This document shows positions 13,398 through 20,900 of a DNA stretch of 64,000 bases, in pieces. The position numbers and the translations under genes were made by a program. The notes beneath the pieces are model-generated. The model was given only the letters and a program-made list of their open reading frames with translations. It was not told the DNA's origin and made no database searches. The DNA is from Escherichia coli (GTDB lineage: Bacteria > Pseudomonadota > Gammaproteobacteria > Enterobacterales > Enterobacteriaceae), in NCBI RefSeq assembly GCF_003018255.1, contig NZ_CP027440.1; one strand, 5' to 3'. Within the stretch, counting starts at the first letter, position 1, and the number at the start of each line of letters is the position of its first letter.

Positions 13398-14330
13398 CGA
13401 TACAACCTGATCCAGAAGTAATATAGAACGCCCGTCGCAAACTTGGGGAGTATGCAGAACATGGAATGCCTGAGAAGGATAACCACTCCAGTCAACGGCA
13501 ATGACGCACAACGTAAGGTCTCGGGGCTGAAACCGGGTAATATTATGAAAAATAGCCGGGATATCGCGGTGTAAAGCGTCATTGCCTGGCAGGCGATCGA
13601 TGGGCTTAATCTTGTTTTAACCTGAGCATTACCTGGCATATACCGTCCAATGCTGGTAAGGATGAGGGATGCGTCCCGACTAAGCGCAGCAGTGGCGTCA
13701 AGGATGGCATTCTGGCGGTACTGATGAAATGGAGTCAAATCATCACGGAAAAACTTTTGGCATGATGAGCGAACGGGCATAGAGGTGATCTCCTGAATTG
13801 TTAGCACAACCAGTCGACCACAAAACTCTATGCCCGTCTTTTTTACCCGCCTATTACTGAGGATTTCTCCGTACCATTACCGGCATTTGTTATCTTTCAT
13901 TGCTACATACGTCATCCCCCAACAAAGCAATGCTTTATAATATTATCGTAATGTCTTATTTTTTATTATTGCGATGGCTTTCTGAACATTTTATAGTGTT
14001 AGGTGTAAATCATTTATATTGATTCACGATAGGAGGATATGGACACCACACTTATTTTATGTCACTCAAGAAACACTTAAAATTCGTTGCACGTGTTATT
14101 ATTCTATTAAATAATTGCACATAATAGATTTTTTCTATTATGTAATAAAATAAAACACTATTAGATACTAGATATGCTAATGGTTTTATACTCTAAATAA
14201 TTCGAGTTACAGGTAGTGTATAAGTGAGTTCCCAAGAGCTTGCATAAGTAAGTGACTGAGGGAGCGTAAGTGCAGTACATGCAACTTGTTGCATGACAAA
14301 TATATTATCTATTAACAATAAGAGGTTATA

Positions 14331-14693
14331 ATGAAGAAATATATTTTAGTATCTCTGATGGGATTAAGTTTGAACGCATTTGCGGGTGGCAGCGGCTGGA
14401 ACCCAGACAGGGTAGACCCGAGCCGTTGTGTTATGGCGACGGGGTCAGGTCCTACCTCTGCGGGTTATATGGTATACCGAACGACTGACTCAGTGTGTAT
14501 GCAGGGTATAAATGAAGGAAAAGTGAAAGGTGTCCATATTTATGATGGGCATCATGAGTTCAATGATGGTACTGTTGACACGTTTAGCGGTAATGTTACC
14601 CCAATATCACCTTTGACATTAAAAACTGATGTTCAAAAAGTTAATAAAGTTGGCATCAAACGCTGGTGGTATAAAGCTAGCTGGATTAAATAA
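14331..14693 (+). CDS. Small secreted protein, Aap (dispersin)/CexE family candidate; predicted substrate of the downstream Aat-like system
   Basis: 120 aa; Sec signal peptide MKKYILVSLMGLSLNAFA with AXA cleavage site gives mature N-terminus GGSGWNPD; two Cys (33, 56); AGAGG-like RBS upstream; AT-rich; immediately upstream of the transporter operon. Confidence 0.65.
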   Translation: MKKYILVSLMGLSLNAFAGGSGWNPDRVDPSRCVMATGSGPTSAGYMVYRTTDSVCMQGINEGKVKGVHIYDGHHEFNDGTVDTFSGNVTPISPLTLKTDVQKVNKVGIKRWWYKASWIK

Positions 14694-14732
14694 AAAATAC
14701 CTTGCCAAACGTTAATAAATAACTTAAACACA

Positions 14733-14767
14733 TCGAATGCGAATCTTTGCATTCGGTGTATTTTTTT
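14733..14767 (+). terminator. Rho-independent terminator or attenuator between the substrate gene and the permease gene
   Basis: Hairpin atcgaatgc-gaatcttt-gcattcggt followed by tttttttc. Confidence 0.55.
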
Positions 14768-14774
14768 CAAAAAA

Positions 14775-17849: not shown

Positions 17850-18475
17850 TTAAATTAGATATTTATGAAAAACAGTTCAAGGATAAAAAAATCCTTAGTT
17901 CTATATCTGTTAATGTTGAAAAAGGTTCATTTCATGTTATTACAGGGCCTTCCGGGGTCGGAAAGAGTTCACTGTTAAACATACTTGGTTTGTTGGATAG
18001 TGAATTTGATGGGAATTATGAGTTTTGTGGTAAAAATATTAATCCGAAGGATTACAATAAAACTTCTCGTATAAGGAAGGAGTATTTTGGTTTTATATTT
18101 CAAGATTCTCTCATTAATGAAAAACAAAGTGTACTACGTAACATTCTATGCTCCGTAGATTATCCTTATTTAAAATTCGCAGAGAAAAATGCGCATACCA
18201 TGCTTGAAATCGTTGGACTCCCTATGCCTGATATGAAGGTTGTGAACCTTTCAGGGGGAGAAAAACAGCGTCTTGCTCTTGCAAGAGCTTTAATAAAAAA
18301 ACCTAAAATTCTTTTGGCCGATGAACCCACCGCGAGTCTGGATAAAAATAATAAAAGGATTATTATGAATATTTTATCCGAATATAATAAAGATGGTGGA
18401 AGTGTCGTCATGGTGACACATGATCTTGAACTAATCACAAGCGACATGAGTTTAATTAAATTAGAGAACAACTAG
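17846..18475 (+). CDS. aatC: ABC transporter ATP-binding protein (AatC-like)
   Basis: 209 aa; Walker A GPSGVGKSS, ABC signature LSGGEKQR, Walker B ILLADEPT. Confidence 0.7.
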   Translation: MIKLDIYEKQFKDKKILSSISVNVEKGSFHVITGPSGVGKSSLLNILGLLDSEFDGNYEFCGKNINPKDYNKTSRIRKEYFGFIFQDSLINEKQSVLRNILCSVDYPYLKFAEKNAHTMLEIVGLPMPDMKVVNLSGGEKQRLALARALIKKPKILLADEPTASLDKNNKRIIMNILSEYNKDGGSVVMVTHDLELITSDMSLIKLENN

Positions 18476-18483
18476 CCAACAAG

Positions 18484-19704
18484 ATGTTTTTGCATATTTT
18501 ATTATTTATCTTCATGCTTTGTTATTATCTGATTTCTAAAGGTAATATTAAGTTATTTTTATTTTTCGTATTAATATATTCTTTTGGCTTGTCATTTGAA
18601 ATGGTTAATGAATATTTTTTTTCGTTAACTCCAACAGTTCATTTCAATTCGATTATTTTATTATATGTTGCTTTATGTAATATCCTGATATTTACCCTAT
18701 ATTACAAGTTATCAAAGAACGGTATTTGGGGATGTGCGATATACGCCGCTGCGATTACCGCTATTTCAGCGATAAAAATATCAATCCCATTAAACCCAAT
18801 AATATTATATTATAAATACAACCTATTTATTCTACCGCAAACAAATTCTCCCTTGCTTAATCTGTATGTTATAAATTTATTACCAGCATTATTTTTTTGT
18901 TGTGATTTTAAAAAAATAATGCTGGTAATTCTATGCTATTTGGCTATGATATTACCCTGTCGCATGCTAATTTCAGATAAAATACCAAAGAGTAATATCG
19001 CTGTTATTCAAGTTGGTCTTTATTATAAAAATGGAGGGACACCTGAAAGGTTTTATAATGACATGGCGAAATTTATAAAAGAAAACAGTGTTGACCTTAT
19101 TGTTTTTTCTGAGAATGTTTACTTTGGTTATAAAAATGAAGTTATTAAAAAAAATACGGATGATTTGTTACTAAAGATTAAAACTGATTCAACACTTAAG
19201 CAAAAAGCATTTTTATTTAATTTTTTTGGATACAAAAAGTTTAATAATGTTATATCCATGTTCTTGCATGTGGATAATTCGCAATTACATCAGAAAACAG
19301 CATTAATTCCTTTTATAGAAAAAAGAGGCGTATTCAATGCTCCAGAAAAGCTTTCATCAGAATATCTAAATATCGATAAAAAAATAAAAAATAATAATAC
19401 ATTTAAGCTTCATGGCTTAAGTTATAGCATATATATATGCTATGAAGCACTGTTTCCTGAAAAATATGTACACAACGGGGTCGTAATAACACAATCTGAT
19501 TACATAAGACTTAATAACGGTAGGGGATATAAGACTACATTGGTTAACGGTAGCTTACTTGCAAAGTTTTCCGTTGCACCAAACACCAAGTTAATAAATG
19601 TCCAGAATTATGGTGGAACTATTGTTTTTAATAATGATTGGGAAATTGACTGGGATATTTATAACAAATCCAAAAAAGAACATTTTTTTGTGGTTACTTT
19701 ATAA
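18484..19704 (+). CDS. aatD: Lnt-like N-acyltransferase (CN-hydrolase domain with N-terminal polytopic membrane domain; AatD-like)
   Basis: 406 aa; hydrophobic N-terminal approx 170 aa; C-terminal domain has VFSEN (E210), QKTALIPFIE (K271) and ICYEALFPE (C319), matching the Lnt E-K-C triad motifs. Confidence 0.65.
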   Translation: MFLHILLFIFMLCYYLISKGNIKLFLFFVLIYSFGLSFEMVNEYFFSLTPTVHFNSIILLYVALCNILIFTLYYKLSKNGIWGCAIYAAAITAISAIKISIPLNPIILYYKYNLFILPQTNSPLLNLYVINLLPALFFCCDFKKIMLVILCYLAMILPCRMLISDKIPKSNIAVIQVGLYYKNGGTPERFYNDMAKFIKENSVDLIVFSENVYFGYKNEVIKKNTDDLLLKIKTDSTLKQKAFLFNFFGYKKFNNVISMFLHVDNSQLHQKTALIPFIEKRGVFNAPEKLSSEYLNIDKKIKNNNTFKLHGLSYSIYICYEALFPEKYVHNGVVITQSDYIRLNNGRGYKTTLVNGSLLAKFSVAPNTKLINVQNYGGTIVFNNDWEIDWDIYNKSKKEHFFVVTL

Positions 19705-19829
19705 TACAGCGAGGGAGTGTTGTTGAAATTTTTATGAGCTATTTACGCGCCCACATATTATTCAAGTCTTGCATATATATGCTGAGTAGTTAAATTCCCC
19801 TGTGCTATGCCAGTTACTCCATTCGCTTC

Positions 19830-20900
19830 TAAGTAGCTGATCCTAATACCGCTACACTTTAGCCAGCCCATGCTTTCCACCGGGGAATGGGCTGACGGTA
19901 TCCATAAAGTGACGAACCTTTTTCAACAGTTGCCACATTGAACGGCACTGGTGATTTCGGGTTATTGTTTCATGAAGCGCCTGCCACAACCGTTCGACAT
20001 GATTGACCCATGGCGAGTAAATTGGCTGATAAATCACCCTGAACTTTGGGTTTGCTTTCAGCCAGCGCAACGTTTCACAGCTTTTGTGGGTGATGTAGTT
20101 ATCGACAATGAGCGTAATCTTTTTTGCCCGTCAGTATGTCTCCTTCAGATGTTTTAACAGCCTGATAAATAAGGATGAACCTTTACTGTTTCCACCCACG
20201 TAGCTGACTTTGCCCGTACCACTGTGCAGCGCACCGGCAAGATAGTACTTTTCATTCCGGCCCGGCGTAACAACGCGCTTTTGCTGCCCGCGTAACTGCC
20301 AGTCTGCGCCGATTTTGGGATTGAGGTGGATCTCCACTTCATCTTCGTAAAACACAGGGTGTTCTATGCTACAACTGACTAACGCTACATTAATCGCTGC
20401 CATTTTTTCTTCCTTATTCGGGCCCCGGATACGCAGTGTTGGTGCTGCTCTGCGCCATACCAGTTCGGCTGCAGGTAACCATCGCCGGGAGAATGCTTAA
20501 CAAGCTCACGCAGCAATGCGCAAATATGCTCGAACGGCCAGCGCCTCTCACGTCCTGACGGCAATGACTTCAGGCCTTCAACACCCGACAGCGTGAACCA
20601 GTTAATCCAGCGACCAATCGATGAGCGAGCACAGCAGAGTGTTCTGGCAGCATGACTGACGGTGTCACCACGATGCAGCATCAGCATGGCTGTGAGCCGC
20701 CGGGCGTGGTTTTTTGTCCTTTGTTTTATGGATCGTTTTCTGGATCAGGCGTCGTTCAGTTCTGGGTATTGGTGCTATGATCGGCACTGCTCCGTCCGGT
20801 TGGTGATTTGGGATATTCAGCGATTGATCAGATCGCATAATCGACTCTGTAACAACCTGAACGGTGTCGGGGTGGTAACATAGGTTAGGAAACAGGGTGC
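19830..20900 (-). mobile_element. Degenerate IS630-family insertion sequence remnant
   Basis: Three consecutive minus-strand ORFs (19852-20070, 20131-20403, 20385-20687) together resemble one IS630/Tc1-mariner transposase (C-terminal YSPWVNHVERLWQALH motif) broken by frameshifts. Confidence 0.6.
19852..20687 (-). pseudogene. IS630-family transposase, frameshifted/truncated
   Basis: Transposase reading frame split across three ORFs; no single intact ORF. Confidence 0.55.

Follow-up and report, generated by a model that had tools for sequence, protein, structure and literature searches.

What occupies the interval between ybdK and entD in this Escherichia coli chromosome, and how did it come to lie there? 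The stretch analyzed here (hereafter the window, 64,000 nucleotides of contig NZ_CP027440.1) corresponds to the E. coli cus-pheP-ybdG-nfsB-ybdK ... entD-fepA-fes-ent region and is colinear with K-12 MG1655 at 95–97% identity outside the features described below. The K-12 ybdK–entD interval holds sokE, hokE, and the insertion sequence (IS) IS186B, and nothing else; the earlier note on this DNA, which had placed sokE/hokE and IS186 there in K-12, was therefore correct on this point. In the window, the hokE/IS186 segment is replaced by a foreign block of roughly 8.4 kb (13310 to ~21670) that carries a gene for a dispersin-family protein (aap) together with the Aat transporter and acyltransferase genes (aatPABCD). 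As markers, dispersin and the Aat transporter serve to define enteroaggregative E. coli (EAEC), and both are regarded as plasmid-borne, AggR-controlled virulence factors. The block described here is probably a horizontally acquired chromosomal islet, equipped with a complete but divergent Aat system and its substrate, and spread by homologous recombination.

Two sets of coordinates describe the extent of this islet. BLAST colinearity with K-12 (97%) breaks at 13309, 50 nt into hokE at codon 17, and recovers at ~21670 inside entD. The near-identical block common to carriers begins at 13214, in the sok/hok leader, and ends at 21670, again in entD. Both exceed the 13400–20900 extent first proposed, and the IS630 remnant that had been taken for the right edge is not the end of the block, which lies beyond an IS3 end fragment and ~540 bp into entD. 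In 400-nt windows, GC content drops from 0.49 (13400–13799) to 0.315 (13800–14199), in agreement with the abrupt compositional shift that had been placed near 13.86 kb, remains at 0.26–0.34 up to ~19600, and afterwards returns to 0.46–0.55. The outer end of an IS4-family remnant, at ~13869, coincides with this compositional break. By segment, GC content is 51.8% in the left core, 30.6% in the aap–aatD module, and 52.8% in the right core. Codon usage gives the same picture of an AT-rich island, with GC at third codon positions (GC3) of 0.25–0.39 in the island genes vs 0.56 in ybdK and 0.64 in fepA, so the proposed sliding-window and codon-usage calculation bears out the foreign composition. The block behaves as a genomic island in its composition, which is unlike that of the host core, in its patchy occurrence, and in a history at odds with that of its flanks. 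The hallmarks of a classical pathogenicity island are missing: the open reading frame (ORF) list holds no integrase in the island, and the insertion site is hokE–entD and not a tRNA gene. Alignment, which had been suggested as a means of finding both boundaries and direct repeats, yielded the boundaries at 13310 and ~21670 and, as to direct or inverted repeats flanking the island, nothing beyond short chance-level matches.

The distribution of the block and its divergence among carriers speak for transfer. Only three of 5,426 complete E. coli genomes (0.06%) carry it, JNE23-011 and JNE112863 from Japan and DETEC-S792 from China, all human-associated; the window represents a further strain that is identical to none of the three. 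In a larger collection, the exact Aap protein is found on 792 contigs, with mosaic EntD variants in similar numbers, and in all ten of the contigs sampled the block has the same ybdK...entD setting. Escherichia sp. TW14182 and Escherichia sp. 93.1462 are among the members of the same 90% protein clusters. Compared with the window, DETEC-S792 diverges by 0.14% in the block (13214–21670), vs 1.0% in the left flank and 2.1% in the right. For assembly GCA_028473365.1 (L015), whose flanks are 93.5% identical to K-12 and whose EntD is labeled “MULTISPECIES Escherichia”, the corresponding values are 0.50%, 6.7%, and 3–5%. The flank-type mismatches with L015 that lie nearest the block are at 13213 on the left and 21671 on the right, and the stretch they enclose includes core DNA, at least 96 bp of hok leader and ~540 bp of entD. 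Over the whole block, 42 mismatches separate L015 from the window and give 16 amino acid changes, mostly in cargo genes; about half of the coding differences are synonymous. Because the same block is found at 0.5% divergence despite flanks that are 6.7% apart, homologous recombination via the flanking core genes is the best reading of these data.

The interval itself is variable in other strains, with one or two hokE copies, IS186/IS421 or IS150, and, in the adjacent entD–fepA spacer of some strains, IS1397. This varied IS and hokE content therefore marks ybdK–entD as a recurrent target for mobile DNA. The proposal of horizontal acquisition at a locus that repeatedly accepts mobile DNA is upheld in both of its parts, given the rarity of the block, its AT-richness, the IS debris at its borders, and its 99.5% identity across divergent flanks.

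The first cargo gene, aap (14331–14693, + strand), encodes a secreted dispersin-family protein of 120 amino acids (aa) with the signal peptide MKKYILVSLMGLSLNAFA and the mature N-terminus GGSGWN. Comparison with the solved EAEC dispersin (PDB 2JVU) by phmmer gives an E value of 3.3e-23 over residues 19–119; the mature N-terminus GGSGWN is the same in the two proteins, which also share both Cys residues. Precomputed Pfam assignments place the protein in PF28204 (Dispersin); our own scans of the NCBIfam and Pfam libraries, which apparently lack PF28204, returned no match for the 120-aa protein. The cleavage region reads NAFA/GGSGW (slash, predicted cut), and for the identical protein WP_001561605.1 SignalP has reported Sec/SPI 0.975 with cleavage between residues 18 and 19 (AFA-GG, Pr 0.907; Icke et al. 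2021 supplement, PMC7943197). The mature protein has a mass of 11.2 kDa, a pI of 9.0, and two conserved Cys. It carries the full signature of an Aat substrate, namely a signal peptide for Sec and signal peptidase I, no lipobox Cys, an N-terminal Gly after cleavage, and Gly/Ser-rich first five residues, and it belongs to the dispersin/CexE family. The N-terminal glycine that follows an Ala-X-Ala cleavage site is the site of acylation as defined by Icke et al. (PMC7943197). The gene sits 81 nt upstream of aatP, which puts it in the class that Icke et al. (PMC7943197) call “within 400 bp upstream”, and the two genes are separated by a terminator- or attenuator-like hairpin (14730–14759, + strand) with a 13-bp stem followed by the T-run ATTTTTTTCA.

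The five genes that follow, all on the + strand, account for a complete transporter and acyltransferase. AatP (14775–15902, 375 aa) is a MacB/FtsX-type ATP-binding cassette (ABC) permease with Pfam FtsX and MacB_PCD domains. AatA (15899–17113, 404 aa) is a TolC-like outer-membrane channel with two OEP domains and a weak TIGR01844 match, and AatB (17085–17849, 254 aa; a longer ORF starts at 17001) is a periplasmic adaptor with weak HlyD_3 and RND_mfp matches. AatC (17846–18475, 209 aa) is an ABC ATPase that matches LolD, MacB, and FtsE-type ATPase models at E 1e-36 to 1e-53. These four genes form contiguous overlapping ORFs from 14775 to 18475, all matched by EAEC proteins in tblastn. AatD (18484–19704, 406 aa) is an Lnt-like N-acyltransferase (TIGR00546 lnt, E 3.5e-9; CN_hydrolase) in which E210, K271, E279, and C319 align with E267, K335, E343, and C387 of K-12 Lnt and with EAEC AatD, all four invariant. 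The corresponding Glu/Lys/Glu/Cys residues of AatD from enterotoxigenic E. coli (ETEC; E217/K278/E286/C325) are required for acylation of CexE (PMC7943197). The very AT-rich Aat-like module described in the earlier note is accordingly well identified as aap–aatPABCD. The window and eight of 12 related loci have every one of the six cargo genes intact, and Aap is identical in all 12.

The anatomy of the block, its family assignments, its conserved residues, its distribution, and its recombination pattern are read from sequence. We infer expression, acylation, and secretion from homology to the EAEC and ETEC systems, and the proposed pathway runs as follows. The 120-aa pre-dispersin would leave the cytoplasm through Sec and lose its signal peptide to signal peptidase I at the AFA/GG junction, whereupon AatD would acylate the new N-terminal glycine, Gly19. 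The AatP/AatC pair, as a MacB/Lol-like ABC transporter, would then extract the lipoprotein, and AatB together with the TolC-like AatA would pass it to the cell surface. There the small, basic Aap may coat the surface and alter its charge and aggregation. The hairpin between aap and aatP probably allows aap output in excess of that of the transporter.

Two side observations concern the cargo coding sequences. At its 5′ end, aatP has a poly-T tract (14782–14790) that is T9 in the window, DETEC-S792, and L015, and T8 in seven of the 12 related loci; in the T8 version the frame is restored from a GTG at 14756, within the upstream hairpin. Both versions give a full-length aatP ORF because each takes a different start codon, and the variation may reflect a switch of start codon, phase variation, or an error in sequencing the homopolymer. 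Within the aatD coding sequence, 18879–18929 forms a perfect inverted repeat of two 20-nt arms around an 11-nt loop; the arms are imperfect in plasmid homologs and absent from EAEC aatD.

Comparison with the EAEC pAA system (aap plus aatPABCD, the CVD432 probe region, in strains 042, 55989, and O104:H4) indicates a shared architecture and considerable sequence distance. The five transporter genes follow the same order in both, the substrate is of the dispersin family, the AatD catalytic residues are conserved, and GC content is low. Relative to the proteins of EAEC 55989, amino acid identity is 35% for AatA, 38–39% for AatD, 48% for AatP, 50% for AatB, and 61% for AatC. At the DNA level, EAEC aatA gives no match except a 90-bp stretch at 76%, and CVD432 or aap polymerase chain reaction probes would probably miss the island copy. 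In EAEC the genes are on pAA and aap lies >1 kb from aatP, whereas here they are chromosomal and aap is immediately upstream of aatP; unlike in EAEC, there is no AggR or Aar gene near the island locus. The ETEC CexE/Aat system (H10407 p948; PMC7943197) is likened to the island system by homology, in Sec export, glycine acylation by AatD, and export through MacB/Lol-like and TolC-like components. The island AatD shares 37% identity with that of H10407, and the island substrate is nearer to Aap than to CexE. The chromosomal aat genes of Citrobacter rodentium (PMC7478709) resemble those of the island in being chromosomal but belong to another species and are RegA-regulated; this likeness is one of description only. 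The supplementary survey of Icke et al. 2021 (PMC7943197) lists WP_001561605.1 and the carrier contigs KTE75 KB732775 and N11-1317 MPGQ01000001; the locus, its position, and its boundaries are not discussed there.

Five E. coli plasmids carry the closest relatives of the cargo, with DNA identity of 79% and amino acid identity of 69–82%. The homology covers precisely 14307–19733, a segment that opens at the ribosome-binding site of aap and closes shortly after the stop codon of aatD. Gene order on plasmid pSTEC299_1 (Marmota), pAST46_1/DLI.5a, TOE17, and an O170:H18 plasmid is the same as in the island, and AatP is 79% identical to the pSTEC299_1 copy at the amino acid level. The plasmid copies also lie amid IS debris, with upstream and downstream sequences unrelated to those of the island, and are accompanied by other virulence-type genes, either an stcE-like M66 protease with a type II secretion system or capU-virK-lpxM. 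In pAST46_1, unlike the window, aatP and aatC are frameshifted. Since homology with the plasmid relatives is confined to 14307–19733, the mobile cargo unit is therefore aap–aatPABCD, and the chromosomal copy has other DNA where its original upstream region lay.

What stands in place of that upstream region is an AT-rich stretch of 437 nt, of which the first 318 nt are an orphan leader and the last 119 nt an enterobacterial repetitive intergenic consensus (ERIC) element, also termed an intergenic repeat unit (IRU). The leader (13870–14187, no strand assigned, 31% GC) has no homolog outside island carriers among the E. coli genomes and plasmids searched, in which only the downstream ERIC part was matched; it contains the only promoter-like site upstream of aap, at 13969–13997, and nothing credible in the way of ANR/Aar-like small ORFs. 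An AggR-type motif, WWWWWWWTATC, was considered and set aside, as its enrichment arises only through the AT-richness of the island. The ERIC element (14188–14306, − strand) is 77% identical, in reverse orientation, to the K-12 cusC–cusF ERIC that holds the ERIC2 primer sequence. It abuts the start of the conserved aap–aat module, with 24 nt between it and the aap ATG. ERIC copies from several genera of Enterobacterales match it, and it folds as a hairpin (z = −2.25). As an aside, it is the only ERIC/IRU-like repeat in the window, and the cusC–cusF ERIC of K-12 (K-12 597,0xx) is absent from this strain at window 2541–2544.

Several findings weigh against the reading of the block as a complete, acquired, and spreading Aat system. 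As judged from sequence, the native upstream region of aap is replaced by the ERIC copy and the orphan leader. A promoter scan upstream of aap gave two sites vs 4.7 expected, which is no more than chance, and no convincing promoter. No AraC/XylS-type regulator gene is present in the island or, by ORF list and colinearity, in the K-12-colinear rest of the window. Related DNA that encodes an Rns/CfaD-like AraC regulator, found beside the related operon on pAST46_1, maps among the 60 matches listed to plasmids only and to no chromosomal place, a search that distant AraC genes would escape. Frameshifts in aatA, aatB, or aatD occur in four of the 12 related loci: the JNE strains have a 2-bp deletion in aatA (window-equivalent 16953–16954), and single loci are frameshifted in aatB (L013) and aatD (L019). 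Finally, no donor genome is represented among the closest other EntD clusters, which reach 84–89% identity and come from metagenome assemblies.

Most of these points would be expected of a silent or decaying relic, in which the cognate AraC-family activator and the original promoter have been lost, aap–aat is unexpressed under H-NS silencing, and the block persists only through recent acquisition. AT-rich DNA of this kind is usually silenced by H-NS. Known aap/aat loci depend on AggR, Rns/CfaD, or RegA (PMC7478709), and no island carrier is found among the 60 listed matches to the Rns-like DNA in the complete-genome set. Since there is no AraC-type activator in or near the island and Rns-like DNA is restricted to plasmids among those matches, expression may therefore be absent or differently controlled. 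The independent frameshifts in four of 12 loci suggest weak or relaxed selection in some lineages, and all of the flanking IS elements are dead. Set against such a relic are the six intact ORFs in the window and in eight of 12 loci, the conserved catalytic residues and cleavage site, and an Aap that is invariant in 12 loci. About half of the window–L015 coding differences are synonymous, with fewer replacements than neutral drift predicts, and the occurrence of exact Aap on 792 contigs implies that the block has persisted and spread. We therefore regard the silent relic as possible but unlikely.

A further reading, which we put forward as doubtful, is that dispersin and Aat have been domesticated on a non-EAEC Escherichia chromosome. 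The system would then give commensal or environmental lineages a surface coat under different regulation and would cross Escherichia lineages by homologous recombination, along with a xenologous entD sourced outside the named species. The uncoupling from AraC-type virulence regulators that this entails would follow from replacement of the promoter region by the ERIC-containing leader.

The left junction of the horizontally acquired islet lies inside the hokE locus. The sok/hok 5′ leader is retained (13113–13268, + strand; Rfam RF01794 sok, 85.7 bits, E 1.9e-18) and is core DNA, 96–98% identical to K-12 and THO-008, that forms the left edge of the shared block. The ORF that overlaps it (13260–13397, + strand) joins HokE codons 1–16 (13260–13309) to 28 unrelated codons. 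Alignment to K-12 hokE and to the IS-free strain THO-008 is near-perfect through the first 50 nt, and identity is lost past 13309. On this alignment, hokE is a truncated pseudogene chimera without its 3′ end and not a diverged hok gene; the hok-like gene with a divergent 3′ half in the earlier note is a real ORF, but its 3′ half is foreign and not diverged. The sok RNA and hok leader of a hok/sok locus are present, and an intact Hok ORF of ~50 aa and the mRNA 3′ fold-back element are not, the 3′ part of hokE and the sequence downstream having been replaced. K-12 and the window thus share flanking genes, a sok/hok leader, and a hokE locus disrupted by mobile DNA. In K-12 the hokE ORF is complete, IS186B follows after 18 bp, and entD is native, whereas the window has hokE cut at codon 17, no IS186, and a mosaic entD. 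Separately, THO-008 (L002, 3063–3717) illustrates the two tandem hokE copies found in the ybdK–entD interval of some E. coli.

The unrelated 3′ part of the chimera is the antisense of an IS4-family transposase remnant (13310–13869, − strand), an N-terminal part that is frameshifted and whose outer end faces the AT-rich cargo. Its GC content is 46%. Identical RefSeq loci annotate an IS4 or IS4/IS5-family pseudogene without its C-terminus, and 13469–13869 has ~72% DNA identity to IS4-family genes in ~640 E. coli genomes. Hence the 0.45 kb that had been left unassigned is the minus-strand N-terminal part of an IS4-family transposase. All of the elements listed in the earlier note are present, with their coordinates and two of the labels corrected.

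At the right border, an IS630-family element (19760–20890, − strand) carries a pseudogene transposase in three ORF pieces and three frames, which match NF033545 over profile positions 6–88, 143–220, and 242–298. It is annotated with a frameshift and an internal stop in identical loci, so the degenerate IS630-family transposase was rightly recognized; no terminal inverted repeats of IS630 were recovered. Beyond it lies a 144-nt, 3′-terminal fragment of an ISEc31-like IS3-family element (20951–21094, + strand) with 82–85% DNA identity to IS3/ISEc31 ends in >2,000 genomes, followed by 36 nt to the entD stop codon at 21131. NCBIfam gave no match for the IS4 remnant or the 45-aa IS3 fragment, both of which are assigned by DNA similarity and RefSeq annotation. 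Kinship of the IS3 fragment with the nearby IS1397 was considered and no relatedness was found.

These remnants bracket the cargo, and the interval is an IS hotspot in other strains, as would be expected if a composite transposon or IS-mobilized unit had inserted independently into the hokE–entD interval of each carrier. The bracketing elements belong to different families, however, and each is truncated or frameshifted. Neither two copies of the same IS nor terminal inverted repeats or target-site duplications were found, and the inner junctions are constant in every carrier examined. Moreover, the shared block includes core DNA on both sides (the hok leader and the entD segment), which transposition would not carry. 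With core DNA in the shared block, fixed inner junctions, and dead IS of mixed families that lack repeats and duplications, the case for homologous recombination is therefore far stronger than that for transposition or site-specific integration, and the transposon reading is very improbable. Least credible of all is a block that was ancestral to Escherichia and has since disappeared from almost every E. coli, which would make hokE/IS186 the derived state: the same locus is occupied in E. coli and in a lineage whose flanks diverge by 6.7%, but vertical descent would equalize the divergence of block (0.5%) and flanks (3–7%), GC content is 31% vs 52%, only 0.06% of complete genomes are carriers, hokE is intact in island-free strains and truncated here, and the island-free relative L006 has an ordinary entD–ybdK junction.

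The co-transferred part of entD offers a view of the source of the block. The whole gene (21131–21751, 206 aa) is intact and mosaic; its 3′ two-thirds (21131–21670, − strand) form the foreign right end of the block. Identity to K-12 is 73–82% from 21131 to about 21640 and 96% beyond. At ≥99% identity, this foreign allele is present only in the three island carriers among the complete genomes, the others having about 84% or below, or no megablast match. At the protein level, EntD is 76–78% identical to that of E. coli and the cryptic Escherichia species, 74–75% to E. fergusonii, and ~63% to Citrobacter. A donor of the allele was not found among GTDB species representatives, which yielded only the loci of E. 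whittamii and Escherichia sp. E1V33, both at 78%. The closest EntD (89%) is on L006, a scaffold of a metagenome-assembled genome from ENA, which has flanks 92–93% identical to those of E. coli and no island. Its entD (10001–10630) is mosaic as well, with a center 95% identical to the island-linked allele and a K-12-like last 100 bp. The divergent entD segment therefore also circulates free of the island. L006 was rejected as the donor, being island-free, having a mosaic entD of its own, and agreeing with neither E. whittamii nor E1V33.

Taken together with the recombination data, these findings point to the following history. The cargo (14307–19733) may have been assembled among IS4-family, IS630, and IS3-family elements, all now dead, beside entD, with the destruction of hokE, on a chromosome whose entD was unlike that of every named Escherichia species. 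Homologous recombination via the conserved flanks would then have carried the whole block from one E. coli lineage to another and also into one or more lineages whose flanks diverge by 6.7%. As the shared block extends from the sok/hok leader into entD, carriers would be left with a mosaic entD.

Human carriage isolates of E. coli, and one or more divergent lineages of Escherichia, thus have a distinct Aat lineage fixed in their chromosomes. The islet is a clean example of a block without mobility functions of its own that spreads by recombination via conserved flanks, and its transfer rewrites the housekeeping gene entD; boundary calls that rely only on composition or IS remnants can mislead in such a case. 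The Aat/dispersin system is well described and the exact Aap is already catalogued, and our understanding of Aat is unchanged by these results. We found no published description of the ybdK–entD islet, its junctions, the co-transferred entD, or its occurrence in divergent Escherichia backgrounds.

IS1397 (21873–23306, − strand) adjoins the island and is not part of it. It lies in a repetitive extragenic palindromic (REP) sequence, or palindromic unit (PU), between entD and fepA, with its insertion point in the loop of the palindrome, between GCCGGATAAGGCGTTC and ACGCCGCATCCGGC, and a 3-bp overlap of K-12 coordinates at the junctions. With its flanks included, it is 98.3% identical to the annotated IS1397 at the same site in ETEC4085, which is island-free. 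Its presence there and its absence from the carrier L015 mean that its insertion is therefore independent of the island. The entD–fepA spacer also holds an Rfam match to the small RNA ES036 (CssrF) at 21810–21851 on the − strand (44.4 bits, E 1.7e-6). Further to the right, the fepB–entC spacer (window ~37646) is without a G+C-rich repeat of ~184 bp that is present in K-12, and a related copy at 79% identity is located at 44929–45028.

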